Assembly (NCBI GenBank): GCA_043228905.1
Contig: JBHGNT010000005.1
Coordinates: 13,020,001-13,084,000 of the forward strand
Source of the DNA: Azolla caroliniana
Taxonomy: Eukaryota; Plantae; Polypodiophyta
DNA: 64,000 nucleotides
Reading direction: 5' to 3'
The stretch's first letter is position 1. Every line of letters begins with the position of its first letter. This document shows positions 792 to 36,591 of the stretch, in pieces. Position numbers and translations under genes: made by a program. Below the pieces are notes generated by a model that searched no databases, was not told the DNA's origin, and saw only the letters and a program-made list of their open reading frames with translations.

Positions 792-793
792 TC

Positions 794-5671: not shown

Positions 5672-5953
5672 TGTCGAATACAGGTGTATAATGGACGTAT
5701 TCACACTATCCCGTTTTGGCCATTTATGTAATTAGCATAAAGGGTAGTTGCCCTAAGTCGGTCACTATATATAGTGACCTTGTAACCTTTTTGTAAGGTT
5801 GGGTGTTGTATTATTGCTTTATGGAATAAGAAGTCTTTTGTGTCTCTCTCTCTCTCTCTCTCTGTGCAACGACCTACAATCTGTCATACGCAGGTGCAGA
5901 AAAGAATCCATTGCTTCTTGATCTTCCGCATCGACACGGCCTTGTCTCCAACA
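5672..5953 (+). repeat. 3' LTR of the Copia element
   Basis: Preceded by PPT 5663-5671, followed by TSD GCCTC. Confidence 0.95.
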
Positions 5954-6334: not shown

Positions 6335-7100
6335 TGTCGTGAAGATTTTCGTCCACAAGCGGAAACATTGTCTACATCGGCGGGGTGTAGCGTGTGTACG
6401 CACCTATGTACATTTAGTGTGAATATCGAGGGCGCCTTTATGGCGCCGAAGAGTAGTCAAGTCGGGATAGACGATCCCATGTAAGTCGTGATTTATCCCA
6501 CATTGTAACGCATCCCTCTCCTTGTTCTATAAAAGGAAGGGAACACCCTTTGGGAAAGGGTTGCCCATTTTGCATTAGAGGTTATACCGTTAGGTTTAGA
6601 GTTAGCTTCTTCTTCTTCTTCTTCTCCTTCGTGTTCGCTTAGGGTTTGCTGCAGCTCATCTCCTGTGCAAGACCCCGCTCAGCGCGACGAGCCTGAGAGC
6701 TCCCCGACGGCGGCTTGACAGCAGACGACTGTTGTAAGCTATCTTGGTCCGGCTCGAAGCCGGGAATGTATTCTTCATATATATACATACATATACGTTT
6801 ACGTTTGTCTGTGTATATTCGTGTCGCTGTTGGCGTCGGGTGCTTACCCTCTCCTACGTTTTCTGTACATAAGGCGCGAGTCGAGTTGAGCTGTGTGTAC
6901 GAGTGTGTGGCTGTGCGTGTGTGTGTGTGTGCGTGTGTGCGTGAGTCGGTGTTAATCTCTCTCTCTCCCTTCGGTTGCTTCCGGTGTGTTTCTGGGATGC
7001 CCCGGAAACGGTGAAGCACGACTTCCTACGCTCCATCGCTATCTAGTCCAAGACCCCCGTGGTCCCGCCTTTCTCCACGCACGCGCGTAGCAACGCGACA
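6335..7100 (+). repeat. 5' LTR (766 bp)
   Basis: Direct repeat of 10219-10976 with roughly 20 visible substitutions and a few indels. Confidence 0.92.
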
Positions 7101-7131
7101 TATTTGGTGAACCCGACGTGAAAGGCGGCAA

Positions 7132-7800
7132 TGGAGGATGGAGTCGGAAGACGACGACCTTGCGGAGACGGTGGCTGAAGTGATGTTGGAGTCGGCACGA
7201 GTGGTTATGAGGCGAGAAGCAGCGCAACAAGCGGTTGAGTGAGTGGTCGAAAGAGTCGGCCATTTCAACGGGGACAAAGTCCCATCTTACTTGGAAGCCT
7301 ACAATGCGGAAATGGAGGAGCGTGGCGTAGACGAGGCGTTGAGGCTGGAGTTCTTCTGTCGGGTTGTGGCTGTCCGGATGCATGCAGAAGTAAAGGAGCT
7401 CAGTGAGGCTCATAGTTCGTGGGAGGCCTTCGAAGAGGCGCTCCTGAAAGCATACGGAGGACGGCGGAAGAGCCGGGGACGACACGACTTCGACTAGTGG
7501 GTAGCATCGGCAAAGACCCACCGGGGTGCGACGAAGGCGTTCCGGGAGTTCGAGCGACGACTTGCTCGGCTCCCAGAGCGGGAACAAGGTTTGGTGGGGG
7601 CAGACAAAGTCCTTTTGTTCGTCAGGTCGATCGACCGAGCGGAACGGGAAGCCATCGGGATTGAGCTCGAAGACGATGATGGAGCGAATGGGCTTACGGA
7701 GGACTGGTCGAAGGTCGGAAGGGTGTGCCAAAGGCTAGACAACGAGCGAGCCGAGAAGGCTAAGACGAAGGTACGTGACGGCGTGCCATCATAGCAGGAA
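7132..7800 (+). pseudogene. Degenerate retrotransposon gag-like ORF
   Basis: VGHFNGDKVPSYLEAYNAEM..SWEAFEEALLKAY..REFERRLARL with in-frame stops, directly after the PBS. Confidence 0.65.
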
Positions 7801-10218
7801 GAGGCCGAACGGCAAAGAGAGCCGGCAAGGGTCGGCGTTGGGGCCAGGATTGCGGAGGCATACGCAGCGCTCAAAGCGAGGCTCGAGGAAGAGGGAGGAT
7901 CGAGGCTAGAAGCTGAGCCCGAGGAGACGGACTTGTCCCACGCGACGACGGAAGATCGGTACGACGGTACCACGGGAGAGGGTGCGGAACGAAACGCCCT
8001 CTCGACTTGCAGAGATAGAACGGCCAAGGACGAGGCCGAGATACCGATCGCGGAATCGGAACGTTGGGACCAACGGTTTCGGGCATGTCAGCCCGAGATC
8101 CGGGTCATTGGAGAAGCAAGCCCAGACGGGGCTTGCGCGATCGGTAAGAAAATGACCGTCGACCACGAAGAGTCGGTGGCTATAGACAAGGGCGTAAAAC
8201 GGACGGGCGATTCTTTGTGTCTTCCCACACTTGCTCCCGAGACGATGGCAGTCGGGCCCGAGTGCCCACGTGAGTCCCAAGCGGAGGAAGGCGGCGGCGA
8301 AAGGCCAAGAATCACCGGCGAGACGATATGGGGAAGGAGCGGACGAAAGCCCACGGACCCGATTCCGGAGAACTCGGCAATTTGGCCCGTATGCCCGTGT
8401 AAGACCAAGGAGATGGATGGCGGTACCGGGGAGTCGTGGCACGATGCCAACGAAGACGGATGGGAAAAGGCCTGCGAGGAGGCCGAGGATGGACACGGCA
8501 CGTGGAGATCGGCATTCCGTTACGGGTGAAGCGTGATCCGGTCGTGGGCCGTTCGATCGGGGCCGGATTCGGCATGAAGGGGCCAGTACGGAAGGGGGTG
8601 CGGGACGAGCCGCCCTCTTTTACATGGGGAGAAAGATCGACCGGGCGAAGGTCGAGATTTGGAATGAGAATGAAAGCCGGTCCTATGGGATTCCTTACAC
8701 CGATCTGGTTGCAGGCCCGAGTGCCGGCGTGAGTCCTATAAGGGAGATCGGTGGCGACAAGAGAACGGGACTCGGCAATCTGGGGAAGGACGAACGGACC
8801 CGGACGAGAACCGGGCGGAACGGACTCCCGGATAACCATTCCGGGAGGGAGGAAGAGAGCAGGCCTATGAAGAGGCCGAGGACACGGTACGTTGGTACCA
8901 TGGGAGAGGGTGCGGAGTAAAACGCCCTCTCGGCATGCGGAAAAGGACGACCCGGGACAGGGTCAGGAAGACAAATCGGCGGTCTACGGAGGATCCTTCA
9001 CACCGGTTCTAGAGACTTTGGCAGTCGGCAACGCGGTCGACGTAAGACCAAGATACTGACGGTGGCGGCGAAGGATCCTTCACACCGGTTCTAGAGACTT
9101 CGGCAGTCGGCAACGCAGTCGACGTAAGACTAAGATACTCATGGTGGCGGCGAGGTGACAAAGACAATGGGCGTAAGGAAGTCCGGTCCTACGGGATCCC
9201 CACACCGGTTCCCAAGTCTCCGGTTGTGCTGCCATCGTGGCAATGTAAGACCGAGGGAGAAGGAAGGTGGCGGCAGGAAACGGGACCTGGCTACGCGGGA
9301 GACACGAGGAGAGTCCGGGAGGGACTCAAACAAAAGACACCCGAATTCGGCAAGCATAGAGACGGAGTCTGGTCCTATGGGACCCTCACACTGATCCGGA
9401 GACTTCGGCAGTTCGGCCAATGTGGCAACGTGAGACCGAGGGAGAAGGACGGTGGCGGCAGGGAACGGGACCCGATGACACGAGGTTTCGGAAGGAGCCG
9501 ATAAGGGCAAACACGGAGAGGTTTGTCAGGCCGGAAAGACACACCTTGGACAGAACATGAGTCTCGCAAGTGGCCATCGCGGGCCGGATCGAAGCGTGAC
9601 TACGGGACGGTGCCAAACAACGGGCGAGGGTACATGGCACACGGAGGTGCCGAAGCGGGAAGGCGAGCACGGAGGACGTCGGAAAGGGATCCTCCACACC
9701 GTTCCGGAGACCATGGCGGTTCGAGCCGACGCAGCGATGTAAGACCATGGAGAAGGAAGGTGGCGGTGGAAGGATGGCGCGACGAAACACCAAGATCGAC
9801 AACATAGGCTGAGCGCGATCGGCATGAGCGGAGAGTCGTATCTAGGAAAACGAAGGAGATGCGCGGAGAGCAATGGGGTACACACCCGGAAGGGAAGCAC
9901 GGGCATCGGATACGGCGGGTCGGATGTAGTCGGTGGTTCAAGGACCCACGGTGGACGTGGCAGATCGGTTGGAGGCAACGACTCGGCGAACATCGCCGAG
10001 TGTGGCGGATCGGATGGCGCCGACGGTTCGAGACCATTCGGTGAGGATGGTGGGCCGGAAGGCGGCGGTGGTTCGTGTGAACGGGGTGGTCTTGCTCGAA
10101 GGCCGGGCGGGCCCGCGAGGACGCTAAGGACTCGGTCGGTCGTGGTGGCCGAAAATCTCGTGTTCTCTCCCCTATGTTTTGGCACATACCGGAGGATGTG
10201 CGGTTAGGTGGGGCTGGA

Positions 10219-10976
10219 TGTCGTGAAGATTTTCGTCCACAAGCGGAAACCGGGAAACATTGTCTACATCGGCGGGGTGCAGCGTGTGTACGCACCCATG
10301 TACATTTAGTGTGAATATCGAGGGCGCCTTTATGGCGCCGAAGAGTAGTCAAGTGGGGACAGACGATCCCATGTAAGTCGTGATTTATCCCACATTGTAA
10401 CGCATCCCTCTCCTTGTTCTATAAAAGGAAGGGAACACCCTTTGGGAAAGGGTTGCCCATTTTGCATTCGAGGGTATACCGTTAGGTTTAGAGTTATCTT
10501 CTTCTTCTTCTTCTTCTCCTTCGTGTTCGCTTAGGGTTTGCTGCAGCTCATCTCCTGTGCAAGACCCCGCTCAGCGCGACGAGCCCGAGAGCTCCCCAAC
10601 GGCGGCTTGACAGCAGACGACTGTTGTAAGCTATCTTGGTCTGGCTTGAAGCTGGGAATGTATTCTTCATATATATACATACATATACGTTTATGTTTGT
10701 CTGTGTATATTCGCGTCGCTGTTGGCATCGGGTGCTTACCCTCTCCTGCGTTTTCTGTACATAAGGCGCGAGTCGAGTTGAGCTGTGTGTACGAGTGTGT
10801 GGTTGTGTGTGTGTGCGTGAGTCGGTGTTAATCTCTCTCTCTCCCTTTGGTTGCTTCCGGTGTGTTTCTGGGATGCCCCGGAAACGGTGAAGCACGACTT
10901 CCTACGCTCCATCGGTCTCTAGTCCAAGACCCCCGTGGTCCCTCCTTTCTCCACGCACGCGCGTAGCAACGCGACA
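10219..10976 (+). repeat. 3' LTR
   Basis: Repeat of 6335-7100. Confidence 0.92.
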
Positions 10977-13725
10977 CCGGATTAACCGTAAGAGCCTGAC
11001 AGATCAGGTATCTGCCATGCAAAGCCAAAAGGGGCAAGCTTCCCATTTCGAAATTCCTAACTGTTCACACGTCTTTGCACTAATCACATTAACGCTAGAG
11101 CCCCCGTCGATTATACAGCCTGTTATTTCCTACCCATGTAATACTAGCCTAATGGCTGGATTGTGGTGATCCACCACTATTGGTCCAGTGCTAGGTTCGG
11201 AAAAATTTGCTGAGATGTTTATACCAGGCCTGCCTATTATGCAATCTTCTATGGCTTGCCGAAATCGTGGAACTAGTTGAAGGATTTTTTCCATGGTCAT
11301 TGTTATTTCGCAGCCTGCCAATGCTTGCCATATGGGGGTCCGGGGATATTATGTTGTCCTCTATCGGCCCAACATTGTCTGCAGACTCCTATCGCATACG
11401 CGTCGTATTGGCCGCATTTGCTTTTTCTACCCATGCTTGGGCCGCTTTGCGTACCTCATCTTGTGCAGCCTAGTCAACATTCTTTGTTTGTTGCCGTATT
11501 GTGACCTGCTGAACTTCAGCCGTAATCGTATTTACGGCTGGTCCTTTTCCCTTGCGCAATGGACATTGAGTTGCGTAATGTCTGGGCTATTGGCAGACAA
11601 AACAATGTACACTGGACTCTCCTTTCTCTGCAGCTGGCGGCAGATTCCTATCCCCAAGTGTCCCTAGCTCCTCCTGGTCTTATTGCATTCTCCTGGAATT
11701 CCAGGATGTTTGCGGTTGGTCCCTGCGTGACTCCTAGCACCGGTCATCCTCCGAACTTTCGTCGTAACGCCATTGGTCCCTATACTGACGATGTTTTCTG
11801 TGGGAGCGAGGCCAATTGAATCCACCACGCCTGTTCGTCGAACGGTGGTTGTCGTAACGACGCCCTCCTTTATTATAATAGTGGTTGCCCCGATCTTCTT
11901 TGTCCTCTGGCTCCTCTTCATCAGAATCGTTGTTATTCCGGCGATTACCGTAGTGCCGGTCATCATGTGGATTTCGATCCGTATATCGGGGTCGTTCTTC
12001 TTGGCGCCTTTGATCATTTCGGCGGGGTGGTCGTTATGGTTCCACACGTCGTACTGTGGGTGTAGATCTGTTCAGCATATTGTATTCACACTGCTCGACC
12101 GTGTGTGCCTTTGAGTGATAAATTGGGTAGTGAATTCGCATATTGCATTCCACCGCGGAATGCCCGTAATTGAGGCAAATTGTGCATTGAATAGCTTGAC
12201 GAAAGTGGTGTTCCTCGTCCTCAGGCAACGCTTGTCGTAACAAGAACAGAGAAAATCCTTCCTCCTCTTCGTCCAACTTAAGTTGTAATGCTCGCTCAAT
12301 GACCATGTCGGATGTTTCTCCTTTCACACTACGTGTGTTGAGCGTCGTACTGATAGGTCGCCGCAGGGATGCCAAAAACGTCTCCCTAGCCTCGTCATTT
12401 GTCGGGGCCCATTCTAATTTCCGTTGTATATTTTGGAAATGTAAGCTAAAGTCCACGACAGATTCTACTAGCAGCTGCTTGATTGTGTAGAACTGCCCGA
12501 TGATTTCGTGTTGAGATACCCTTCGATGAAAAAATCGCAAAAATGCTTACTACAACAAGTCGAAGGTGTTGATTACTGGTAGATCCATATGTGAATGCCA
12601 AAACGCGGCTCTACCATCCAGAGTTTAACCAAACTCTGTCATCTTTGACTGGTGCGCTTCCTCTTCTGGAAGTCGTTGCGCCATGTTGTTCGTGTTCCAA
12701 ACGTTTAGGAATAGCCGGATGTGGCTTGCGGCATCTGTTCGCCATTAAAGCATGGGTAGGAGAAGGCCATTCCAGACGCTATGGTGGGCAGGGGAAGATC
12801 ACGGTACTCGTGTCATGACAAAACTTTCTGCTTGACGTCACGGTGTTGGGTGAGCATGGAATCAACTTTGTGGTCCGGATAGATATCATTGAGGCGAGGT
12901 TTTTGCCTTGCACGCTCCTTTGTCTGGTGTGTGATGGACCTCGTGAGTGGTCAGTCTTGTCAGGTCGGTTCTCTGGGCCGTCTACAACTAGACATCCATC
13001 CCCTGTTGTTCGTCTACGAGAAATCACAGATCACTAGGCTTGTCAAACGTGTTACCGATTAGGAACATTGTCTACACCTAGTCCTTCGAGGTAGACCTCA
13101 GGGTGACCGTGTTACAAGGAATCGAACCGTCCTATGGTAAATCGTAATGGGATACCACCTCGTATCCTGGTAGTGTATAAGGGAGACGGCTACAACTGAA
13201 CTCCTCAGGAAGTGCACTAGTATACGCACTTACGCTTACACACACTTACGATTAACAGTACGCAACAGAGAACAATGGATTGTCAGATAGATAGACACAG
13301 AAATGCACAAAGATCAGAGAAGATAGGATTCTATTAGAAAACGTCCTGCACTCAAAATTACATGCTACCTCTTACAGAGGATTTCTGCCCTTTATATACA
13401 CATGGCATTTAGTCGTTCATGCTTCCCGCGTGAACCGTTACATTCGCTTCTTAACGCTTTACTATATTATAATATTTCTACGCTTCTGTCCGTCGGTTAC
13501 GATTCCGGCGAACACCAGAGGCCGCCCAAGCATACTTGAACCATGTCATCTTCGTTGAAGATTATGTTGATGGAGCCAAGCGAGTCACAAATGCTCCTGA
13601 TCTTGGTGGTGTAGTCTGACACGGACATGTGTCAGGAACAGTACTAAGACAGAGAAGTATTGTTAGGAACAATACTAAGATAGAGAAGGAATTAGCACTA
13701 AAAGATGAGGATTAGTATTAAGGGA

Positions 13726-17010: not shown

Positions 17011-19921
17011 GGTTTCGGCCTCGGCCGAGTTTGTTCATCAACACTGTTCTTCTCCCTTCCCATCCGGAGGGACCTGTCTCCCAACACTATAGAGGCTAGA
17101 CATAGGAGTTTTCTTAGGGATATCTGATGAGCTTGGGAAAAATTCCTATCCATGAAGCAAGAATTAGCTCCGGAATCTAGGAGTGCTAAGACATGTACTG
17201 GAGAGGTACTTTTAGTACTAAGTGTTACTTGGGCTAAGAACCCATTGCTAACTTTCTTAGAGGGAATGGAACCACTAATGGGCTGCACAAATCTAGGGTT
17301 GTCCAACCAAATGGCTCCTATTTTGGCTGGACTTAGTCGTTTAACTCTTCTTCTAACTGACTAAGAACATCAAATTTATTTGATAGATTTGGGCTATTAG
17401 TACTATTAGGACTATCAAATATTCCTATTGAAATAGAGTCGGTTTTAGTACAATTAGAACTAGCAACTATTTGGTTTACCTATCTTCTTGGCCTATGGGG
17501 ACAGTTCACTGCAATATGCCCTGGTCCACCGCAATAAAGACATAGTCGATTTGCTCGGTGTCGCTGCTTTTCTTCTTCCGGTAATGGTCCGCAACGACAT
17601 GTAGTGTCAATTTCCATCGGAGTTGGAGTATTCACTAGAGACGCATTATATGACTCCCTTGGAAAAGGTTTTGCTACCACTCAGGCGTAGGTGGGCTCTG
17701 ATCTTGCCCTTGCCATCTGGAACTGACATTCCGAACGTCGTTCGAAAAGATTGTTGTCGCATCTCACCGCGCGGCTGATTGCTTCTATCAATGACTTTGG
17801 TTCTTCAGGGAAGGTCAAGAGTAAATCCTTGACATCGTTATGTAGACCATAATGAAATTGCTCCATTAGTGCTTGGTCATCCCAAGCGATATCGGAGGCG
17901 AGTAGGCGGAGATCTGCAGCGTATGCGGAGGCTGGACAATCAGCTTGACGTAATCATCGGATTTTGTTGATTGTTGTTCTTATGCTGTCAGTATCTCTTC
18001 AAAATTGTTTAGTAAAGGAGATTTCTATTCTAACAATGGAGTGAACCATGCCAAAGCTAAGCCACTTAACTACATGCCTACTAAACCCACTCGTGATGCA
18101 TCGATGGGATATCGGGAAGGATGCATTTGAGTGATTAATCGTATCTGATTAAGGAATCCTCTAACATGTGATTGTGTTCCATCAAATTTCATGGGAAGGC
18201 CAATCTTGGGTTCTTTATGAATCCCTTGCATACAGGGTCCTTGTTGTTGCATCGCTAATGTGCTTGCTTCGAGCTGTTGCATGCGTAATGCTAGTTCCCC
18301 ATGTTGTTGCGTCTGATGCTTCTCTAAGGAGATTCGTTGAAGCTCTCCCAACAGTCGTTGATTTTCTTATTCCAATGCGAGAAACTTCTCTTTCAAGCAT
18401 TGCAACTCTGAGAAAACGGATTGTATTCTTGAGCGCTAAAAGTGGCCATGGTATGAAGGGAGCAAGAAGTAAGAAGATAAGGAAGAGAACGAAGGAGACA
18501 AAATCGGTTCAAACTGTCAAGAACAATACTAAGATAGAGAAGTATTGTTAGGAACAGTACTAAGATAGAGAAGGAATTAGTACTAAAAGATGAGGATTAG
18601 TATTAAGGGAGATGTAGAGCTCTCAAGAGAGGAAAGAGTGAGAGAGAGAGAGAATGATGATAACAAAAGATATATATTATGTTAAGAGAATATACAATAG
18701 TAGCTTAGGAGGCTTAAGACTGGCATTGAACCGATTTGGTTTGAAATAATTCCTTGTGCCTCCTTTTATAGTGTTCTCAGGAGTACTCCTGAAGTTTCTA
18801 GAATGTTCTAGAGAAATCTGGAATATACATCAATTTTCTATAGTAAAACTTAAAATAATATCCTTCATATTAAAACATATAGTCTAATGGTCAAGAGCTT
18901 GACCCATGTAACATAAGGTCATCGGTTTGAGTCTTGCCATATCATGACAACATTTCTTTTTGTTGAATGTTGTTCAACTCTTGTCGGAGTTAAAGCTTTT
19001 GGACAGTTATGTTGGTGGCGAACATTTTCTTTAAGTCCTCCCATGCTTCTTTAGGCGTCTTGGCATCTCGAATGTGGCTAAGCATGTGGTCATGGACACA
19101 TGTTGCCAAGCAATACATGACTCGACTCGTCGCTTGCTCCCATGTTGTGTAGTTGGCGTTCTTCAAGTCAGGTCGATTTTCTTATGCGTCATTGATGTAG
19201 CTCCAATACCCTTGGCCAACGAGGTATTGGGTCATCTTGTACTCCCAAGACGAATAATTGCTCCGGTCTAGCTTTTCACTAAGGAGTGAGCTACCCATTT
19301 TTGTGTTCATGTTGATTGTAGTGTCTTCCATTTTGCATTTCTTCCTTCGATCACGTACTCGTGCTACGTAGTAGCACTACGGTAGTGAATAGCCAGAATT
19401 TGTCGTCGGCGTTTTGAACACAAAATCACAGAGTCGGGTGGGCTTAATGGATGAGCTAAACCACATGCTCCGATACCATGCTAAGAATTAGGTAATTAAT
19501 TAAGCAAGGGTTAATTATTACCTAATTATGTGATGAAGTTAATAAGTGGAAGATTAAGTGATATGTGTGTATGTGTGTGAGAGGAAGAGAGAGAGAGAGA
19601 GATACACTTATGAACAACACAAGATGGGGGATGAGTAACTATATTAAATTAGCTTTATCATCATCAAATACAAAAATACCCACAATGAGGTATATATACA
19701 TCTTATGTGCAAAGGTGCACATGTGTGAGTAGAATATAAGTACTAAGGTATAAGTCCTATATTAAATGTACTTAGGAGTGGAGGATCTAGAATATCCAAC
19801 TAAGTACAAGGTCCTATTTAAGGCATTCTAGTCAACACTTCTAACTAGATTCTATCTTGGTAACTACGAAGTAACATGGTTGACTAAGTAACTAAACTAA
19901 GTTGAGCTTGATCTCTCAACA

Positions 19922-21961
19922 AAATGATACTACACATGCTAAATTATCTAGGACAATATTAACTGGCTCTGATTCTTCTATGATATTTCCAGAAGCAATG
20001 GGACGACCATCAATGACTACTACGGAGGCTGGGCAAGGGAGTTTTCTTAGGGATATCTTATGAGCTTGGGCAAAATTCCTATCCATGAAGCAAGAATTAG
20101 CTCCAGAATCTAGTAGTGCTAAGACATGTATTGGAGGGGTACTTTTAGTATGAACGGTTACTTTAGCTAAGAAAACATTACTAACTTGCTTAAAGGGAAT
20201 GGAACCACTAATGGGTTGCACAGATCTAGGGATGTCCAATCAAACGGATCCTATTTTGGCTGGACTTAGTTTTTTAACTCTTCTTCTAACTGACTAAGGA
20301 CATCAAATTTGTTTGATAGACTTGGGCTATTAGTACTAGTAGGACTATCAGACACTCCTACCGAAATAGACTCAGGTTTAGTACAAGAAAATATTTAATT
20401 TGCCTGTCTTCTTGGCCTATGTGGACAGTTTATTGCGATATGCCATGGTCCTGAACTGTAAAGACATAATCGATTTACTTGCATCGTTGCTTTTCTTCTT
20501 CCGACAATGTTCCACAACAACGTGTAGTGTCGATTTCCATCGGTGTTTGATTATTTGCCGGAGATGCATGATATGACTCCCTTGCAAATGATTTTGCTAC
20601 GATCGAAGCGTATGTGGGCTCCGACCTGGTCCTTGGCATTTGTAACTAGCATTCCTAACTTCGTTCGAAAAGCCGGTTATCACATTGTACCGCTCGACCG
20701 ATTGCCTCTGTGAGCAATATTGGTTCTTCGGAGAAAGTGAGGAGTAAGTCATTGACATCATTTCGCAGGCCATATCAAAATTGCTCCATCAATGCTTGGT
20801 CATCCCAGGGGATATCGGAAGCAAGTAGATAGAAATCTGCGGCGTAAGCGAAGGCTGACGATCACCTCGACGTAATCGTCAGATTTTGTTGATTGTCGTC
20901 CTTATGCTATTAGTATCTCCAAAACAGGCTTTAAACTCACTTATAAACTCTTCAAAGTTATTTAGTAAGGGAGAACTATTTTCCAACAACAAAGCGAACC
21001 ATGCCAAAGATAAGCTGCTCAATAACCTGCCTACTAGACCCACTCGTGATGCATCGGTGGGATATCGGGAAGGATGCATTTGAATGACTAATCGTACCTA
21101 ATTAAGGAATCCTCTGAACTGTGATCGCGTTCCATCGAATTTCATAGGAAGGCCGATCTTGGGCTCTTTATGAATCCCTTGAGTACTTGATCCTTGTTGT
21201 TGCAATGCTACAATAGTTGCTTCAAGTTGTTGCACGTGTAACGCTAACTCCCCATGTTGTTGTTGCAACTCCCCATGTTGTTGTTGTGCTTGCTTGCTGC
21301 TTTTCTAAAGAGATTTGTTAAAGATCCCCCAACAACCGTTCATTTTCTTGTTCCAATGCGACAAACCTTTCTTTGCAGCACTACAACTCCGAGAAAACAG
21401 ATTGGTATACTTGAGTGCTAACAATTGCCATAGTATCAGAGGAAGGAAGGATAAGAAGATTAGTATGAAGGGAAGGAGGGATACGAAGTTGAAGAGAAAA
21501 AATTGGTTCAAACTGTCAGGGATAGTACTAAAGGCAAGGAGAATTAGTACTAAAGGTAGAGGGATAGTACTATGAAGGGAAAGAGTGTGTGAGAACCAGG
21601 TGAGAGGAGAGAGACAGAGAGACAGAGAGAGAGAGAGAGAGATAATGATGACAACAAGAAGTATATTATATTATAAGAAGAAAGATACAAGAACAGCTAA
21701 GAGGCTTAAGATTGGCGTTGAACCGATTTGGTTCTTGATGATGCCATGTGCCTCTTTATATAGTGTCTTTAGAAATACTCTTGACATTTCTAGAATGTTC
21801 TAGAGAAATCTAGAATATACATGGATTGCCTAAGTGAAATAATAAATGGAAATAATATTTTTTGTATTACAACTTATAGCTTAATGATAAGGCTTCCGCC
21901 CATGTGCCACAAGATCATGGGTTCAAATCCTTTTGAAGCCATACCATGCTATATCATGACA
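19922..21961 (-). mobile_element. Tcn1-like chromovirus 5' portion (LTR 21514-21961, degenerate gag and protease)
   Basis: Paralogous to 17087-18949: HPSRYPTDASRVGLVG, ALLDSGANSCF; LTR TGTCA..TGACA. Confidence 0.85.
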
Positions 21962-24900
21962 CTACTCGGCGACCTACAACCCATGAGTACCAAGAAAGCG
22001 CAACAATATGAAGAGTTGTCACAACGGGTTCGCGAACTCGAGGCTACTATATTATCATTACGAGAACAAGCGTTGGGGGTTCAAAACTACCCCAAAGAAC
22101 CGAAGATTGGCCTCCCTGCTAAGTTTGATTGTACGTGGTCTCTATTTCGAGGCTTTTGGAATCAAGTACGTTTGGTTATTCAATTACATCCCAATCGGTA
22201 CCCAATGGAAGCTGCTCGTGTGGGATTAGTAGGAACCTTGTTAAGCGGTACAACACTAGCATGGTTTGCACCACTCCTCGAGAAGAAATCACCGTTGTTG
22301 GAGAATTTTGAGGCATTTGTTAAGGAGTTTCAAGCTAGATTCGGAGACACCGATAGCACTAGGATGGCAATAAACAAGATTTGAAGGCTTCGACACGGAG
22401 ATCATCCCGCGTCGGCTTACGCATCCGATTTCCTTCTTTTGGCATGTGATATCCCTTGGGATGAGGCGGATCTAATGGATCAATTCCGTCAACCTTTGCG
22501 TAATAATGTCAAAGATCTTCTTACCTGCCATGAAGATCTAAAGTCTCATACATAGGTAATTAGTTGAGTTGTGCGATGTGATAATCGCCTATTTGAGCGA
22601 CGTTCGGAGCGCCAACAAATGTTACGCCGCCAACCGGAACAAACGTACGCTTCTGTAGTTGCAACGCCTCTACAAGTTTCTAGACCCATCACGAGGGATT
22701 GCCCAACTCCAATGGAAATAGAGTCAATGCAACGTTGGGGACTTTTATCAGATGCTGAGAAGCAACGATGTTGAGCACACTGCTTATGTCTATATTGTGG
22801 GGGTCCATGACATATAGCCGTGAATTGTGCACATAAACCTAGACGTCAAGTATACCAAGTAAGTGCACAAGACAACCTTACTTCAAGCTCCATTATTACT
22901 TCTAATAACATAAGTAAGCCTAATAGTCCATGCCATGAGAATAGATTCGATGTCTTGAGCCAATGAGAGGATGTGTTAAACAAGTAAGTCCAGCCAAAAT
23001 AGGAGTCATTTGGTTGGACCATCTTAGATATGTAGAGTTAGTTCGTAGTTGTGGTTCCATTTCATCAAATCAAGTTAGTCGAGTTTTCTCTATACAAGTT
23101 GAGCTTCGCACATCTACACGTCATCGAGTCCTAGCCTTTGCCCTCCTAGATTTTGGAGCCAACTCTTGTTTCATGGATCGTGAGTTTGCATTGACACAAA
23201 ACATCCTCTTCAATAAGCTCCCGAACCCAGTAGCCGTAGAAGTCATCGATGGCCGTCCCATAGCATTAGGTGATACAGTCGAGGAGACCGAGCTAATTCG
23301 TGTAGTTTTTGGTGATTTGGCAAGCATAATCTCTTTCAACATTATTCGTATTCTAGAACATCCATTAGTTCTAAGTATCCCTTGGTTTGAACTACATAAC
23401 TCGAAGATTGATTGGATGAAAAGAACAATTGAGGAGTCCCAAGAAAAAAGAACTACACTCACATCCCTCAACACTCCGATATTTGATATTGGATCCCATA
23501 AGTTATCAAGCATCTCTCCATCAGTTACGTGAGGAAGGGGGGAACGAGGACATGTTCGTATTTGCGATCGTAGCAACGCCATCAAGCCTATCACCCGTCT
23601 TACCGGAGCCAGACATCCAATTACTGAAAAAATACAAAGAGATCTCACACGTCTTTGATAAGATGAAGGCAAATACACTACCAGAGCATAGGCTATATGA
23701 CTGCCCTATTGACTTACAACCAGGGAAACAACCGCCATGGGGACCAATTTATAATCTCTGACCTGTAGAGCTAGAGATTTTGCGGGAATATATCGATGAG
23801 AACCTCGCAAACGGATTCATCCGGCATTCTAAATCCCTTGTTGGTGCACCTATCTTCTTTGTTAAGAAGAAAAACAAGTCTCTTCGGTTGGTCATGAATT
23901 ATCCAGGGCTAAACAAAGTGACTGATATGGTCTACCATTGATCTCGAACCTTTTGGAACGTCTCAGTGGAGCAAAATATTTCACAAAATTGGACCTTCAC
24001 AGTGCATATAATCTAGTTTAGATTTGTCCAGGGGATGAATGGAAGACTGCTTATTGCACTTGCTATGGATATTTTGAGGATATTGTGATGCCATTCAGTC
24101 TCACAAATGCAACTACAGTTTTCCAACATATGGTGAATGATATTTTTCGACATTTTCTTGATATCTCCACTATAGTTTACCTAGACGACATTTTGATCTA
24201 CTCAAAAACTGAAGAGGAGCATGATAAATATGTTCTTCAGGTATTACATTGACTACAAGAATATGTTCTCTACGCAAAATTAGAAAAGTGTAGTTTTGGC
24301 TAGAATCAAGTGGAGTTTTTGGGGTATGATGTATCATCAGTTGGTATCTCTATGGACCCAATGAAGGTTCAAACAATTTTAGATTGGCAAATGCCCCTTT
24401 CAGTGCGTGATTTACAATGTTTTGTCGGGTTTGCAAATTTTTACCAGAAATTCATTAAAAATTATTCCAAGGTCGTGCTTCCGCTCACGCGACACACACA
24501 CAAAAATCAACCATTCGTATGGAGTTCAAAGGCAACCGAGGCATTCAAAAATTGAAAATGAGCATTTACAACAGCGCCTATTTTGGCACATGTCTATCCC
24601 AAAAAACGCTTCATCCTTGAAGCTGATGCGTCCAACTTTGCATTAGGAAGTGTTGTATTGCAGACTGGAGATGATGGACAGCTACATCCTATTGCTTTTC
24701 TTTCCCGAAAATTTGAAGCTACAGAGATTAACTACGAGATCCATGACAAAGAACTTCTAACAATTGTAGATTCTTTTCAACAATGGCGACATTTTCTGGA
24801 AGGTTCTTCTTAGCATATCATTGTCTACAATGTCACAAGAACCTGACATATTTCCAAAATGCTCGAGTCTTAAGCCGGCGACAAGCTCGTTGGGTTCAAT

Positions 24901-26737
24901 TTTTGACTCACTTTGACTTTGTAATCATATATCACCCAGGGATGCAGCAAGGAAAAGCAGATGCTCTTTCTCGATGCTCTTATATGGAACTTCGTCGAGG
25001 AGAACCAACTTTTGAGCATCAAAAACAAATCCTTTTGGGTCCTAATCGCCTACAATTAATGGCGGTTAATTCCATAACCAACCCAGGGAATCCACTATTC
25101 TTGATTCCATTCAAGATCATATGTCTATTGATGTGTTCGCGAAAGATATTTTGGATCATATAATCCTGGATCGTGCTTCTTGCTCACAATCGCAAAACCC
25201 TCGTACTGACTATAGTCAGTTCAATTGGCATGGTGGCTTTCTGTTTTGACAAAACCTACTGTATGTTCCTTATGGTCCCCCATGCTTGCAATTCTTACAA
25301 CATGGCCATGATACACCAATGGCTGGACATTTTGGAGTCACCAAAACTCTAGAATTAGTTTTCCGGCGATATTGGTGGCCTCGACTTCGTCATTTTGTAG
25401 AGGAGTATGTCCGCAGTTGTGATACATGTTGTCGATCAAAGAGTAATCGACACCGATCATATGGTTTACTACAACCACTTCCAATTCCTAAAAATCCTTG
25501 GAAGTTTATATCCTTGGATTTCATTACCGATCTCCCAGTTTCGAGGGGTTTTGATACCATTCTGACCGTGGTCGATCGACTTACCAAGATGCCACATTTC
25601 TTGCCATGTACAAAGTCTATTATTAGTCAAGAGACAATCAATCTAGTTATGCGGGAGGTATTCAAGCATCATGGTCTTCCAAAAAATATTATTAATGATC
25701 GAGGTTCACAATTCATCTCAAAGTTCTAGAAGCACATGTTAAAACTTCTCCAAGTTTCGGCTAAGCTTTCTTCCGGCTATCATCCAGAGAGTAATGACCA
25801 ACCAAACTTTGGAGCAATCTTCGTTGTTTCATCAACTATCAACAAGATGATTGGGTTGATTTTCTACAAGACTCCTAAAAAAAGTTTCATGTCGGGGATT
25901 GTATATGGCTTCCACAACACAACATCAAGACCACTAGGCCTAGTGGTAAACTAGATTACCAATGCTTTGGCCCGTATGAGATCACTGGTAAGATAAGCAA
26001 TGTTGCATTTCGTCTTGGCCTCCCTCCTCACATGCATGGTCACCCGGTGTTTCATGTCTCACTTCTCGAACCTTACACCACAAGTTCAATTCCAGGTCGT
26101 CTTACCACTCCCCCACCACCTGTGGAGTTTTTGGAAGGACTGGAATTCGACATTGTTGCAATTCTCGATTCCAAGATGGTGCGCAACAAGTTGTATTATT
26201 TGGTCGATTGGTTATGCTATACACCCAATGATTGAACTTGGAAACCTGCAGCAAATCTTTTCAACGTTGTGGACATGGTCATCGAATTTCATCGACAATG
26301 TCCTCGTAAGCTAGGTCCTAGTACAACCCATACGACCTGTGATACATGTCGTCGAAGAAGGTGGATAGTGGCATGATGACACTCACATATGATTTGGGTT
26401 TACGAGGATTAGAACCCACAACCTTCTTATATATGTGTCGTATTCTTAGCCATTGTAATGATATATTTATATGTATAAATAATTTATAAATTATATAGAA
26501 TATTATAAAGTATTCTAGACTACTCTATGTTCTAGAATGTTCTAGAATATTGTAGAGTGCTCTATGCTCTAGAATGTTCTATAATATTCTACCATACTCT
26601 TTATTCTAGGACTTTCTAGAATACTCTATTAGGACTTATAAATATGCATCTAATAATCAGGGATGAACCAATTTGGTTCAACGCCATTCTAGAGCTCCCT
26701 TGTTGTTTACTCATTGTAATCCATCTTATAGTGCAAT

Positions 26738-31136: not shown

Positions 31137-33433
31137 CTACAAGGATATCATACCAATTTTCTTGTAACATGGACAAAGTAGTTGTATTGCAAAAAAACAA
31201 TTTAATAAAATCGTTTGGGAGTCTTTTTCTGTTCTTGCGACAATGAGAAGCTACATCCCATGGCTTTCCACTCGCGCAAATTTGACGCTGCCGAAATCAA
31301 CTACGAGATACATATTAGCAATAGTGGACTCTTTTACACAATGGAGGCATTTTTTAGAAGGATCTCCTCTTCAAGTCAGTGTATTTAGTGATCACAAGAA
31401 TCTTGCCTACTTCCAAAGTGCTTGCGTGTTAAATAGAAGACAAGCTCAGTGGGCTCAGTTCCTCACTCGTTTTGACTTCAAGATTACATATCGTCCGAGC
31501 AAGCAACAAGGGAAGGCGGGTGCATTAGCACAACGCTCGTATCTAGCTCCTTGTCATGGTGATCCAGCCTTGGACAATCAAAAGCAAGAAAACCTAGGTC
31601 CAACATGCTTCAAGCAACATCGGTTTTTGACACTCCATTGTATTCCCGCATTATCGATACCATACATGAATATTTGAAGACAGATGTTTTGTTCAAGCTA
31701 TTCTAGATCAAATCGATTCTGCTCGAGCATCTTGTTCACGGTCACAACAACCAAGTACAGATTATCGACAATTCAAATGTCATGATGGTTTACTCTTCTT
31801 TAAGAAACTTTTGTGTTTTCCTAATGATTCTTGTTGCCTTCGAATAGTACAAAATTGTCATGACACATACACAACCGGACATTTTGGTAGTACTAAAACG
31901 TTGGATTTAGTACAATGATAAATTTGGTGGCCCCATATGTGAAGATTTGTCGAAGACTATGTTCGGACATGTGATACATGTTGCAGAGCGAAGATGCCTA
32001 GACATCATCCCAATGGTTTGTTGGAGCCGTTACCGATCCCAAGCGAACCATGGCAATCTATTTCTCTAGATTTTATCACAGATCTTCCGGATTCGAAGAG
32101 GTTCTATGTGATCTTAACAGTGGTAGATTGATATACTAAGATGGCATATTTTGTGCCCTGTACTAAAGAAATCACGAGTGAAGAAACCATAGGAATTGTT
32201 ATGTGTGAAGTATTTTGGCATCATGGTCTTCCTGTCAGTATCATCAGTGATCGTGGACTTCAATTCGTCTCTAAATTTTGGAAGCATCTCTTCGAAATGC
32301 TCAAGGTCACTTGCAATCTCTCCTCCGACTATCATCCCCAAACAGATGGACAAACAGAACATATCAATCAAACGTTGGAACAGTATCTTCGATGTTTCCT
32401 AAGCTATCAACAAGATGATTGGGCAGATATTCTACACTTTGCTGAATTTCCTTATAATAATTCTATCCACTCCTCTACTAGGGTTACACCATTCTATGCT
32501 TATAGCGGCTATCATCCTCGTTGGTATGTGTTAGAAACTCCGGATTTACCCACAAATCGTAGTGTAGAGGATCATTTGGAGCAGCTACGACGAATTTAGG
32601 CTGAACTATCTATCCATCTACATCTAGCAAACACAGAAGGACTATGTGGATCGTTATCGGCTTCCATCCTCTTTTGATATTGGAGATCGAGTATGGCTAT
32701 TTCGAAGGCACATCAAGACTATTCGACTATGTGACAAACTGGATTATCGATGGTTAGGCCCTTTCCGAATTAACGGAAAAATTAATGATGTCACTTTTTG
32801 CCTTGATCTACCTCTACAACTACAGATACATCCAGTATTTCATAGTTCTCTTCTAGAACCTTATCAGGACAGCATAATCCCAGATCGTATTACACCACCT
32901 CCACCCCTGATCGAACTTAAAGATGAACTTGAGTACGAGGTTGTTGTCATCCTCGATTCCAAGATGGTTCGCAACAAGCTCTATTATTTAGTTGATTGGC
33001 TAGGATATAGTCCAAACGAGCATACTTGGGAACCAATGACGAATTTGGTGAATGCTCAAGCTTTTCTTGAAGATTTCCATCGTCAATATCCAGACAAACC
33101 AGGTCCTTAATCAAAGATGACTCGTAACACTCATCGTTTAAAGGGAAAGATAATATCATGATATGGCTCCAAAAGGATTTGGACCCATCACCTTGTGTTA
33201 CAAGGGTTGAACCCTTACCATTAAAACATGTATTGTAATACGAAAAATATTATTTTCATTTATTATTTCACTATAGGAAATTCATATATATTCTAGATTA
33301 CTCTGGAACATTCTACTAAATAGAGGCACATGGCATTATTAAGAACCAATTCGGTTCAACACCAATATTAAGCCTCCTAGTTGTTCTTGTATCTTTCTTC
33401 ATATAATATAATATACTTCTTGTTGTCATCATC

Positions 33434-33464
<31 letters not shown>

Positions 33465-33466
33465 AT

Positions 33467-36407
33467 TGTTTATTTCAAATCCAAAGGGGAAGTTATTGTC
33501 TTTGGTGACATGAATGCTCGTACAAGAAGTTTCCAACTTGATTCACAAGAATCTTTGATGCCCCATATCTCAAGGATGCAAGAGGATATGCAAATGTATA
33601 GTCGATCTTCTAGCGATGAAAAAGATCCGGACCAATTTGGGAAATTACTCCTACAAATGTGCAATAGTACCGGATTGCTCATTGCAAATGGTGTTTCCTT
33701 ATGGCCCAATACTAACGGCTTTACATGTAGAAAACACAATGGAAATAGTGTGATTGACTATATGCTACTTTCCGAAGGTATTTTGGATCGTATACATAAA
33801 TTCTCACTTGGAGAATGGACACCGGAATCCGATCATAGGACTTTATGCATTGATCTCAAATGTATGCATAGGTTTGATTGCGAGAAGGTTATTGAAGATA
33901 GCAAACAAATGCATTTGAGCATGAATCTTAAGCGAGCGCCCATGTATTCCAAGATGGTTGAGGATATGCTACAAATGACAAAGACACAACATGGTGGCAC
34001 ACTAGAATGTAAATGGGAAGCTTTTAAGAATGTCATTCTCTCTTGTACAAACAAATGTTTTTCGACCAATCGCACATCATGGAAATACACCAAGAAATGT
34101 AAGAAAAAATGGTTTGATAAAGAATGTCATGAAGCTCGAAAGTGCCTTATGGTTTTGGATGTAGTTAAGGATAAAGAAAATTATCAAAAGCATTTGCATG
34201 ACTATAAAAGGCTTATTCAAAGAAAGAGACGAATATGGGAAGTTACTCAACAACTTCTCCAAACGCAAGAGAAAGCACATGCATGTGCTAAATTTTGGGG
34301 AAATCTAAAGGGTAAACGTGTTGAGAGTTATGGTGACTTAACTCTTCATGACTTGTCTATGCATTGTAAAAATTTATATGAGTTATCTCTTGCCGGAAAG
34401 ATGATGTGTTATGGTTCTCTTTCACATATGTCTCCCTTCTTTACAATTGAAGATATATGCATAGGGCTTAAGAAATTGGCCTCTCGAAAGGCAAGTGATC
34501 TTCAATGTATAAAAGCTGAAATGCTCAAATGGACGGGAAAGGAAGCACATATATGGATATGCGATATGTTTAATGATGCATTGCAACATGGTATGCCATA
34601 TGATTGGACTACAAATTGGATTAAACCTCTTCATAAAGGCGGAGATGTAAATAATGTAAACAACTATCGAACCATCATGGTTGGCTCACTAATGGCAAAG
34701 TTATTTGGATGTATAATGGAATTAAAGATAAGTGTATGGGCAGAAAAAAATGGTAAGAGAGCTTATGGACAAGCTGGCTTTCGAAAACACCATAGCACAA
34801 TTGATCATCTTGTCACTCTTCGAGTATTAATGGAGGAAAGTCGCCTTAGAGGTAAAGGTTTATATTGTTGCTTTGTAGACTTCAAGAAAGCTTTTGATAT
34901 GGTACCTCGTGAGCATCTTTGGAGGCGAATGGAAGAACTTGAGGTGCCAAGTGAATATATGCTTGCAATTTCCCGAATATATGAGAAGGTTATATGTTGT
35001 GTGCGTATGAGAGATAGACTTTCAGATTTTTTCAATAGCACTATTGGTGTTAAGCAAGGATGCCCACTCTCACCAACATTATTTGGTCTATGCATTGATG
35101 AGTTAGAAGAAATGGTTGCCAAGTTTGTAAAGGAAGAATGTGTTGAAGAAGTTGCCATTGGGAATGTGGTGATTATGCTTTTGTTATATGCGGATGATGT
35201 AGTGCTTTTTGCAAATACTTTAGGAGATGCACAAAAGCTTATGAAGGCATTGGAAAAATTTTGCATGCATACTAAATTAAGTGTCAATAGCTCTAAAACA
35301 AAGATTATGCTTGTGAAGAGTCAAAAAAGAGATAAACCATGCATTATGTACAACAATGAGCCACTTGAATGTGTGGAAAGCTTCAAATATCTTGGCCTTG
35401 AAGTTCCTTCAAATCATAAATGGAATGAATGTGCTACACGCCGCTTAGAGGCGGGTAAGCGTGCATATTATGCATTTGAGAACACATGCAATCTTGGAGA
35501 TATTAAGTGTTGGGTCCTCAAGAAATATCTTTTCGACACTTTGGTGACCCCGGTTCTTCTCTATGGGGTGGAAATATGGGGCGGTAGCATCCCTAAATCT
35601 ACTTGGAAAGAGTTTGAAAATGTCCAAAAACATTTTCTCACAAAGTTTCTACAAGTTAAGAAACAAACGCCCTACAACCTCCTCCTCCTTGAGACGGGAT
35701 CACTTCCCATTGAGGTCATGGCCATGGAAAGGGTTGTTGAATACATGCTTAAAATTCAAAAAAGCCCCGCACATCGACTTCCTCGAATTGCATGGGAAGC
35801 AAGCAAAAAGATCCAAAAGACGCATAAAAGCAAAATTTTGTGTTCCGGTTGGATGCAAGATTTAGAAAAATGGTTTGGTAGATGGGATGCAAGACACTTG
35901 CTTCATGATGCGTCACTAGATTCCTCTGTAAATGAGGCCTTTTTGCAACGCCAATGTATCATGACATGGGAAAAATGTGGTGGCTCACGCTTCACACATT
36001 ATACCATAAATGTTGCACCTAACTACAAAACCATATTCTTCGCGGAACGGGGAAGCCGTACACATCGCTACATATTAGAGCCCATCCCAATATCTGCCAT
36101 TCGAACCATTGCTTCCATGCGACTTAGCTCGCATGCATTGAGATGTGAGACGGGGCGTTGGGGCACAAGTGATGAGAGTGACCGACTATGCACACTTTGC
36201 CCTAAACAAGTCCGAGAGTCTGAGTATCACACTTTGATACAATGCTCTGCCTTTGATCATATTCGGCCATGCTTTCCACATCTCTTTGGAGCCCAATCCT
36301 TGCACGAATTTCTCTCACAACCACGATGTGCACTCTCGATTGCAACATTCATTGGCAAAGTTCTTGAGCATCGTGAGTCGCTACTCACCTTCACACGTAT
36401 CACGTGA
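33467..36407 (+). CDS. LINE ORF2: partial apurinic endonuclease, reverse transcriptase, C-terminal CCHC finger
   Basis: GDMNAR, IDY, SDH (APE); QAGFR, VDFKKAFD, GVKQGCPLSP, LLYADD, FKYLG (RT); RLSSHALRCETGRW..CTLC..ESEYHTLIQC. The listed start at 33381 lies in LTR and (CT)n sequence. Confidence 0.9.
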
Positions 36408-36487
36408 CATGTAATATTTTTGGTCTCATAGGTCATATTTGACCTCCGAAGACGATAATATAATCTATCTATCTATCTATCTATCTA
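33467..36487 (+). mobile_element. 5'-truncated LINE (RTEX-like) with (ATCT)n tail
   Basis: Open APE-RT-zinc finger ORF, short 3' UTR, ATCT tandem tail, candidate TSD TCTCTCAT (33459-33466, 36488-36495). Confidence 0.88.
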
Positions 36488-36591
36488 TCTCTCATGATGC
36501 TCACACACTCTTTCCCTTCTTAGTACTAATCCTCATTCTTCTCCTCTATCATTAGTACTAATTCTCATTGCCTCTAGTACTATCCCTGACA

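Follow-up and report, generated by a model that had tools for sequence, protein, structure and literature searches.

Antisense tRNA-like A- and B-box modules at the U3 edge of LTRs in a self-priming Azolla chromovirus family, with a possible role as TFIIIC sites

Why should an LTR with a predicted Pol II promoter of its own carry, just inside its outer end and facing away from the element, the two internal promoter boxes of a tRNA gene? The question arises in a 64,000-nt stretch of Azolla caroliniana DNA (here, the window). An earlier note on this DNA had reported eight A- and B-box motifs in four LTRs, and all eight were found at the positions and on the strands reported. All the repeats in question are LTRs of a single self-priming (Tf1/Tcn1-like) chromovirus family. 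As the note had described, the boxes stand at tRNA spacing (43-44 nt), antisense to the element in all four LTRs and just inside the LTR 5' terminus, with 15, 31, 37 and 21 nt between the end of the B box and the LTR 5' end in LTR1, LTR2, LTR3 and LTR4, respectively. The features are as follows.

18515..18949, minus strand: LTR1, the 5' LTR of a chromovirus copy of lineage S1b, with a self-priming primer-binding site (PBS) after it
18880..18890, plus strand: A box of LTR1, covering tRNA positions 8-19, without mismatch and in antisense to the element
18916..18920, plus strand: tRNA variable-loop-like stretch of LTR1 (positions 44-48; 44-47 are invariant across all eight lineages)
18924..18934, plus strand: B box of LTR1 (positions 52-62), altered at position 56, a change that is rare in the family
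18826..18879, no strand: AT-rich spacer of LTR1 (16-21% GC), upstream of the A box, between module and HSE; predicted TFIIIB landing region
18791..18808, minus strand: HSE-like array of LTR1, GAA/TTC units in alternation
18763..18770, minus strand: TATA box of LTR1, part of the predicted Pol II promoter
18721..18741, minus strand: start of the R region of LTR1, the self-primer, complementary to the PBS
18501..18514, minus strand: self-priming PBS, immediately after LTR1
21514..21961, minus strand: LTR2, the 5' LTR of an element of lineage S2b, with a self-priming PBS after it
21874..21936, plus strand: tRNA-like module of LTR2, aligned to positions 5-66 of the Rfam tRNA model (17.6 bits; gathering threshold 29)
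21877-21887, 21920-21930 and 21931-21934, plus strand: A box, B box and T4 run of LTR2
21794..26368, plus strand: decayed gag-pol body of the LTR3 element, with Ty3 capsid-like and integrase Pfam matches and many stops and shifts
26369..~26785, plus strand: LTR3, the 3' LTR of an element of the divergent lineage G3b, with a purine tract before it; its 3' end is truncated at a CT run
26406..26460, minus strand: module of LTR3, with a half-degenerate A box (26460-26450) and a B box (26416-26406)
32628..33110, plus strand: integrase C-terminal ORF piece, with a Tf2-1-like SH3 domain and a chromodomain that has aromatic-cage residues; it immediately precedes the LTR4 purine tract
33154-33464 and ~36488-36591 (span 33154..36591), plus strand: LTR4, the 3' LTR of an element of lineage S2a, preceded by a purine tract and interrupted by a LINE
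33175..33228, minus strand: module of LTR4, with A box (33228-33218) and B box (33185-33175)

Remnants of gag, RNase H, integrase, SH3 and chromodomain adjoin the LTRs, and the PR-RT-RH-IN order, the C-terminal chromodomain, the LTRs and the purine tract identify the element as a chromovirus (Ty3/gypsy). A full Pol relative of 1158 aa was 76% identical over the matched region, and the nearest named protein relatives were fungal (48-49%). The element is Tcn1-like: its chromodomain is of class I with an aromatic cage (Tyr, Trp and Tyr at the cage positions of the window ORF, read by eye in an alignment), and its self-priming PBS is complementary to the start of R. This complementarity was seen at 10 loci (one of them a duplicate) in addition to LTR1 and LTR2, and in most of these loci PBS and R covary. 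Since the element primes itself a tRNA primer is unnecessary, and a reading of the module as a relic of a tRNA primer-binding site was rejected for this reason and because its location is wrong. The HSE, TATA box and self-primer that the earlier note had placed beside the module were all located, and a perfect three-unit HSE-like site, scored as alternating GAA/TTC units, was present in 45 of 55 family LTRs. Tcn1-clade elements of mosses and club-mosses share the class I chromodomain with its aromatic cage, self-priming without a tRNA PBS, TG...CA LTRs of ~440 bp and fungal proteins as nearest named relatives (PMC6317226, PMC2864245, PMC3350952). For the SM-Tcn1 LTRs, the available parts of these papers describe TATA and CAAT boxes and no tRNA-like or Pol III element, and the term 'polymerase III' does not occur in the text available for PMC2864245.

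Boxes so short and degenerate could resemble a Pol III promoter by chance. Scored against the textbook A- and B-box consensus sequences, LTR1 to LTR4 showed 2, 1, 3 and 2 mismatches over both boxes, and 0, 0, 0 and 1 of 400 dinucleotide shuffles of the same LTR matched as well on the better of their two strands; in all eight LTRs tested, 0-1 of 400 shuffles equalled the box match. Once the tRNA-Asp array was set aside, the window held six A/B pairs with at most three mismatches, of which four were the LTR modules. We then surveyed 55 family LTRs chosen without reference to the module. At most three mismatches were found on the antisense strand in 49 of the 55 and on the sense strand in none; the orientation was antisense in every scored copy, and the spacing was 43-44 nt in 51 of 52, unlike the distance from the B box to the LTR end, which varied from 10 to 37 nt. 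Each of the eight lineages sampled had the module, and it was present both in 5' LTRs, which have a PBS behind them, and in 3' LTRs, which have a purine tract in front. A search with a model of the module gave 17 matches in 59 sources, each inside a family LTR. In a prokaryote genome collection, 12 loci carried distant chromovirus-like pieces (34-50% identity), none of which matched the model, and the 10 with downstream DNA, where LTR limits are not defined, had no A/B pair with three or fewer mismatches. The viral collection yielded no protein relatives and one unrelated pattern match, and blastn of the module against phages gave chance matches only. Although ARAGORN called no tRNA in the module and local similarity to the tRNA-Asp genes of the window exceeded all 200 shuffles in just four of nine LTRs, the shuffle results, the strand specificity, the tRNA spacing, a variable-loop stretch in register and an alignment of the Rfam tRNA model in two copies largely refute a chance resemblance. 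The origin that the earlier note had proposed, a tRNA or the head of a SINE, is supported, as are the antisense orientation and the presence throughout the family. Compared with the layout of a SINE, the module is a head-sized piece only.

The module is nevertheless not a tRNA: the cloverleaf is gone and a rod hairpin stands in its place. ARAGORN gave no hit, and the Rfam tRNA scores obtained, 17.6 bits in LTR2 and 24.0 bits in a second copy (alignments over positions 5/6-65/66), lie below the gathering threshold of 29. No Rfam tRNA match was obtained for LTR1, for locus L093, for 10 of 11 loci in one scan or in another over 21 kb. Cloverleaf pairing was possible in 51.4% of cells (27.2% in the anticodon stem, 43.5% in the acceptor stem), versus 84.4% for the rod. 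Relaxed ARAGORN runs on the module gave mixed isotype calls; it may bear a likeness to tRNA-Thr(UGU). The part of PMC13437025 available places the CAA motif of tRNA genes at positions -10 to -3, and we did not adopt this reading for the CAA conserved here, which lies only 5-7 nt before the A box, within the old acceptor strand.

The rod hairpin did not figure in the earlier note. Its one clear compensatory pair is 26-59, where 23 of 50 copies have C-G and another 20 have U-A, and its covariation score was reached by none of 500 shuffles, the structure having been drawn from the same sequences. RNAalifold found no consensus structure among the module copies, and fold z-scores were alike on both strands (median -2.1; 27/50 and 26/50 below -2); the element strand folds the hairpin about equally well. 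Each lineage group has a well-paired stem of its own.

How far the boxes have been preserved depends on the scale of comparison. The earlier note held that they persist in the divergent LTR at 26.4 kb (LTR3). Between this lineage and the main group, the B box was 80% and positions 14-19 were 97.5% identical, which upholds the claim, but A-box positions 8-13 were only 26% identical; the 3' half alone is kept, and the A box is half-degenerate in 6/6 G3 copies. The 40 nt adjoining the A box were at shuffle level in this comparison (0.38 vs 0.42), and the pol DNA of the two window elements was 65-68% identical. Across eight lineages (49 of 50 aligned copies), core B-box positions had changed in 0/6 cases versus 18/33 inter-box positions (Fisher p=0.017), and invariant box positions in 2/11 versus 25/44 others (p=0.023), values that overstate independence because the lineages share ancestry; moreover, the A/G and C/T substitutions that the boxes tolerate are the most frequent kind of mutation in any case. 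Between lineages, the B box differed only at R57, N59 and 62, position 57 being A or G only and position 59 any of three bases. That the boxes are more conserved than their flanks thus stands when single positions are scored and when the divergent lineage is compared, but not for region averages within the main group, where net divergence was 0.089 for the A box, 0.088 for the B box, 0.094 for the AT-rich spacer and 0.044 for the HSE; there the boxes are no more conserved than the spacer and other U3 parts and less so than the HSE, and the position test was not significant (1/11 vs 42/138, p=0.12). The non-box positions 41, 43-47, 50 and 51 were also invariant, and therefore other constraints act in the module. 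Taken over deeply separated lineages, the sequences support selection on the B box. The B box of the S1 lineages includes a CpG, methylation of which could silence it.

We propose that the module is a tRNA-derived TFIIIC site, kept by selection and acting in cis beside the HSE-TATA promoter, a reading to which we would give a probability of roughly 45%. The remnant of a tRNA gene, or of a tRNA-derived SINE head, would have become fixed facing backward at the U3 edge in a single capture by an ancestral LTR, and reverse transcription would have copied it to both LTRs. As the promoter boxes are intact and the tRNA fold is lost, a TFIIIC docking site is likely. The B box is predicted to bind TFIIIC, and where the A box is intact TFIIIC could load TFIIIB onto the AT-rich spacer, in head-to-head orientation to the HSE, which lies ~70-90 nt away. 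TFIIIC may then form a boundary and position nucleosomes beside the predicted heat-shock/TATA promoter. Class I chromodomains are thought to direct integration into heterochromatin, and for this reason a TFIIIC site that the element itself carries on the outer side of its 5' LTR would hold back silencing and read-through from the flank and leave the HSE accessible. Short outward Pol III transcripts would probably be a by-product. The sections available of PMC4228148 report that TFIIIC-bound B boxes at yeast tDNA/ETC sites block Pol II read-through and alter adjacent Pol II promoters, which is the mode of action proposed here, although those sites are chromosomal rather than element-borne and the effect was experimental there and is inferred here. 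Against this reading stand the region averages within the main group and the loss of the A-box 5' half in one lineage, and the rod hairpin with its compensatory pair, superfluous for a DNA-only barrier, points to a role as RNA or single strand. A wider version is doubtful: a lineage of autonomous plant chromoviruses that target heterochromatin would have taken over a tRNA gene as a mobile TFIIIC/Pol III unit, which would insulate the heat-shock promoter wherever a copy lands, produce a short hairpin RNA directed outward and have spread very many TFIIIC sites through the host genome. If it holds, sites seeded by the family could shape host chromatin organisation.

Other explanations put the selected function in an RNA or cDNA. 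The module might be retained because it still works as a Pol III gene, whose product, a short antisense hairpin RNA (~70 nt in S2), would regulate the element. The intact A box in most main-group copies, the fixed spacing, and the better pairing of the rod with its covarying pair would suit such a gene, as would a T4 run straight after the B box in 17/18 S2 copies and the precedent of Pol III miRNA cassettes in the U3 of foamy viruses (PMC3993851, in the text available). We consider it unlikely: T4 follows the B box in 0/25 S1 and 1/6 G3 copies (18/49 in total), leaving 25/25 and 5/6 without an LTR-internal terminator, and was found within 25 nt outside the LTR in 2/11 3' LTRs. Because the terminators are lineage-specific, a fixed RNA product is not conserved. 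The folding results also weigh against it, with no common RNAalifold structure, equal z-scores on both strands and covariation that may reflect one or two inherited events in the very sequences from which the structure was drawn. Slightly less probable is a tRNA remnant kept only as a hairpin in the element RNA or cDNA, where, lying 10-37 nt past the purine tract on its downstream side, it would aid plus-strand priming, packaging or end processing, and where the boxes would survive because they make up one arm of the stem. The folding of the element strand, the stem particular to each lineage group and, in 3' LTRs, the position beside the purine tract and the integrase end are consistent with this. 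But C56 in S2a/S2b and G52 in G3a/G3b are kept though their hairpin partners are unpaired, so that the hairpin alone does not account for the boxes; moreover, position 59, which is free to vary, no longer pairs in G3b, A14-G19 are kept outside the stem in G3, and the boxes keep a constant spacing at a variable distance from the purine tract.

We give little credence to a neutral relic of a tRNA or SINE insertion that hitchhikes in the LTR and owes its palindromic look to template switches made at a quasi-palindrome by the reverse transcriptase. It would fit main-group conservation no higher than in the rest of U3 and the short trailer duplications complementary to the A-box region, which look like templated mutations. 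It would also fit deletions through a box in 4/55 copies (L013, L035, L042, L095) and between the boxes in L108, but deletions in single, probably dead copies tell little about selection on active masters, and survival of the module across lineages with unalignable adjacent U3 and 65-68% identical pol, with changes that follow the shape of the boxes, speaks against neutrality. The architecture, with A and B boxes intact within the LTR, would also allow a landing pad for Pol III-targeting retrotransposons or for the family's own integrase. This is very improbable, since foreign junctions upstream of the A box among 63 LTRs, a low-power set on short contigs, lay at 46, 99 and 111 nt (L079, L075 and L106) with no single distance. 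ARAGORN found 0 tRNA genes at the 60/60 family loci scanned, and therefore there is no sign that the family targets them.

The earlier note had likened the LTRs to Cassandra and did not recognise their architecture as described. The latter was overstated, as a nearer precedent exists in the Helenus TRIMs (TRIMp3), which are defined by tRNA-derived A and B boxes in their LTRs (Kojima 2024, PMC10886601; statements here follow the parts available). As in the Azolla family, each of the two LTRs holds tRNA-derived sequence whose conservation centres on boxes A and B and which probably does not work as a tRNA. One family occurs in a non-seed plant (Selaginella), and insertion of a SINE into an LTR was proposed as the origin. 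That paper mentions 'not a few' Repbase LTRs with tRNA-like sequence and analyses only TRIMs. Helenus elements, however, are non-autonomous, 311-1263 bp long and tRNA-primed, and carry the tRNA part in sense (in consensus entries including Helenus-1_SMo), where it was proposed as the element promoter. In the Azolla family it is antisense and at the extreme U3 edge of a gag-pol-encoding, self-priming element that has kept an HSE-like/TATA Pol II promoter, and an antisense module beside the element's own Pol II promoter cannot transcribe the element. Cassandra and Ajax likewise captured an internal Pol III promoter in the LTR, but they are non-autonomous TRIMs with 5S type-1 boxes, and the Cassandra promoter makes the element's own RNA (PMC10886601, same parts). 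Foamy viruses resemble the family in that they are autonomous LTR retroelements whose U3 holds stem-loops and A/B-box units next to a Pol II promoter; they differ as vertebrate retroviruses with proven, terminated transcripts that the text available does not call tRNA remnants (PMC3993851), whereas the chromovirus terminators are lineage-specific and a Pol III transcript is at most predicted. In the open-access literature searched, no description of an antisense tRNA-derived module in such chromovirus LTRs was found.

With this family, tRNA-derived LTR promoters are no longer confined to non-autonomous TRIMs but occur in an autonomous element as well, turned so that they cannot transcribe it, and the family may show how TRIMp3-type LTRs arise. 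It bears on the question of how elements that integrate into heterochromatin remain inducible. To our knowledge, a boundary role of TFIIIC has been little tested in plants, and the family offers a defined, lineage-conserved site of 55 nt in which mutation can separate box from hairpin function. High-copy tRNA-like pieces of LTRs such as these can also inflate counts of pseudo-tRNAs.

Self-comparison, open reading frames and Pfam identified the four motif-bearing repeats of the window as LTRs of one Ty3/gypsy chromovirus family, sitting inside a nest of retroelements:

18515-18949: LTR1, 5' LTR of a minus-strand copy, gag remnants on its left
21514-21961: LTR2, 5' LTR of a minus-strand copy, gag remnants on its left
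26369-~26785: LTR3, 3' LTR of a plus-strand copy, preceded by an integrase-chromodomain end and a purine tract
33154-33464 and ~36488-36591: LTR4, 3' LTR of a plus-strand copy, split by a LINE, preceded by an integrase-chromodomain end and a purine tract

All eight A- and B-box motifs of the earlier note were found again at exactly their positions, and in 4/4 LTRs the boxes lay at the U3 edge and pointed away from the element. Scored against the textbook A-box and B-box consensus, LTR1 to LTR4 showed 2, 1, 3 and 2 mismatches, and dinucleotide shuffles matched as well in 0, 0, 0 and 1 cases per 400. Outside a tRNA-Asp array the window held six A/B pairs of such quality, four of them being these modules. 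The array (52270-59600, minus strand) is a tandem of about 19 tRNA-Asp(GTC)-like genes in units of 280-430 bp, many decayed, with 13 genes called by ARAGORN. An isolated 96-bp fragment (13630-13725) shares 95% identity with the 3' tip of LTR1. The LINE (~33467-36487, plus strand; 1008-aa stop-to-stop frame with endonuclease and RT, (ATCT)n tail) interrupts the (CT)n run of LTR4 and is flanked by what looks like an 8-bp target duplication; microsatellite targeting is possible.

Further family LTRs were sought in metagenome contigs with an R-region motif independent of the module, which gave at least 120 metagenome loci and one viral locus. Among the matches listed, 81 of 121 were family members by motif-flank similarity; 59 of these 81 had at least 240 nt upstream, making 63 with the window LTRs. 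Removal of three duplicates (L038, L098, L096) and of five LTRs with a cut or rearranged U3 (L055, L075, L076, L079, L106; the A box is kept in two) left 55. In this set, drawn from the matches listed, the antisense A and B boxes had at most 3 mismatches together in 49 LTRs, and on the sense strand 0/55 had fewer than 4. The spacing was 43 (16 copies) or 44 (35 copies) in 51 of the 52 copies scoring 5 or better; the distance from the B-box end to the intact LTR end was variable (10-37 nt). Contigs covering the module region occurred in all seven sequencing runs examined, under six different organism labels, a coverage that shows spread and is not independent proof, since the best-matching runs may include the source of the window. 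The antisense module is real; its TFIIIC function is putative.

The module is with high probability tRNA-derived. In tRNA numbering, T8-R9-G10-Y11, A14, G18-G19, a variable-loop stretch (44-48) and the B box (52-62) stand in register, and the Rfam tRNA model aligned over the whole module in LTR2 (17.6 bits) and in the outside locus L115 (24.0 bits; gathering score 29); LTR1, L093 and the 10 loci searched together with L115 gave no match. It is not a tRNA, since 51% of cloverleaf cells and 27% of those in the anticodon stem were paired and ARAGORN called no tRNA in it. Further signs of a SINE (body, tail or free-standing copies) were not found, and the module model matched family LTRs only (17 matches in 59 sources).

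Evidence that the module is under selection was mixed and leans towards yes. The check whether boxes outlast their flanks came out negative by region within the main group (n = 48, with L030 left unassigned), whose subfamilies showed net divergences of 0.089 (A box), 0.088 (B box), 0.094 (AT-rich spacer) and 0.044 (heat-shock-element-like array, HSE). Invariant box positions changed in 1/11 cases versus 42/138 for other U3 positions in this group (p = 0.12), and across eight lineages including the divergent G3 (49 copies) the core B box came out positive, with 0/6 positions changed versus 18/33 between the boxes (p = 0.017), both p-values being indicative only because the lineages are related. 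Position 57 was A or G only and position 59 A, G or T, the degeneracy expected of a B box. Between G3 and the main group, identity was 97.5% at positions 14-19, 80% in the B box and 65-68% in pol DNA, and the 40 nt adjoining the A box were at shuffle level. The claimed persistence of the boxes in the divergent LTR at 26.4 kb (LTR3, G3b) holds for positions 14-19 and the B box and fails for A-box positions 8-13, which are lost in G3 (26% identity to the main group).

Our preferred reading, at a probability of about 0.45, is that a captured tRNA promoter has been retained as a putative TFIIIC site acting in cis. TFIIIC would bind the B box, and TFIIIB would occupy the AT-rich spacer in a head-to-head arrangement with the HSE. 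At the outer end of the 5' LTR the site would form a boundary that holds off heterochromatin and read-through from the flank. Such a boundary may be useful to this element, whose chromodomain is proposed to target heterochromatin (available part of PMC3350952); yeast offers a precedent for boundary and read-through effects of TFIIIC sites (available part of PMC4228148).

Two of the other readings involve a hairpin that the earlier note did not describe, in which positions ~22-35 pair with ~49-63 and 84% of cells are paired, as counted on the same sequences from which the structure was derived. Among 50 copies, pair 26-59 is C-G 23 times and U-A 20 times; RNAalifold detected no common fold, and folds on the two strands were similarly stable (median z -2.1). 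That the module serves as a functional antisense hairpin RNA is unlikely, though the foremost of these readings: 17/18 copies of lineage group S2 have a T4 terminator after the B box, against 0/25 of S1 and 1/6 of G3, so that no single RNA product is conserved. Slightly less probable is a hairpin required beside the purine tract, and the B box is not accounted for by the stem, as C56 in S2 and G52 in G3 are kept without a hairpin partner and in G3b the stem is broken at the free position 59. We consider a neutral relic improbable. A landing pad is very improbable, since foreign junctions upstream of the A box are scattered (46, 99 and 111 nt away) and tRNA genes occurred in 0/60 loci; chance resemblance, set beside the shuffle counts, is the most remote of all.

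Helenus elements, defined by tRNA-derived A and B boxes in their LTRs, represent the same kind of tRNA capture; however, they are non-autonomous, tRNA-primed and sense-oriented, and our family differs in all three respects (available entries of PMC10886601, where Kojima also reports further LTRs with tRNA-like parts). According to the available parts of the respective sources, foamy viruses also have Pol III units in U3 (PMC3993851), a gypsy element of Culex carries a tRNA-like insertion at the PBS (PMC3286476), and the chromoviruses of dictyostelids, instead of carrying boxes, target tRNA genes (PMC5006619). Plant tRNA flanking motifs were taken from the available parts of PMC13578239 and PMC13437025. 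The openly accessible literature searched contained no description of a tRNA-type promoter lying antisense in the LTR of an autonomous plant chromovirus.

The HSE, TATA box and self-primer described beside the module were confirmed. A perfect three-unit HSE-like site lay upstream of the TATA box in 45/55 LTRs, and in 10 loci as well as LTR1 and LTR2 the PBS complements the beginning of R, pointing to self-priming; the two co-vary in most of these loci. Self-primer (18721-18741) and PBS (18501-18514) co-vary between subfamilies, also in L010, L026, L034, L042, L044, L058, L071, L106 and L115; for self-priming of the Tf1 type in the family this is good evidence at the sequence level. Its chromodomain has an aromatic cage and its nearest named protein matches are fungal; with self-priming, these features fit the Tcn1 clade, known from mosses and club-mosses (available part of PMC6317226), as presumptive clade and host. 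The L075 and L106 LTRs break at or beside the HSE-TATA palindrome and are joined to RT-like sequence, possibly a recombination hot spot or an assembly artefact.

Elsewhere in the window, a young Copia element (508-5953, plus strand; LTRs 98.9% identical, open 1361-aa frame) had no A/B boxes found in its LTR, and an element at 6335-10976 has ~765-bp direct repeats (94% identity) around a GC-rich (60%) interior with no Pfam match in the 3 frames tested. Two further repeats, one a 50-bp AGCT-rich tandem repeat and the other AT-rich with numerous inverted arms, occupy 28150-29190 and 39800-40750; a repeat of similar look (L025:1680-1900) flanks the LTR in L025, L038 and L098. Chromovirus-like integrase and chromodomain sequences within prokaryote genome records (L122-L133) are probably eukaryotic contamination of those assemblies.
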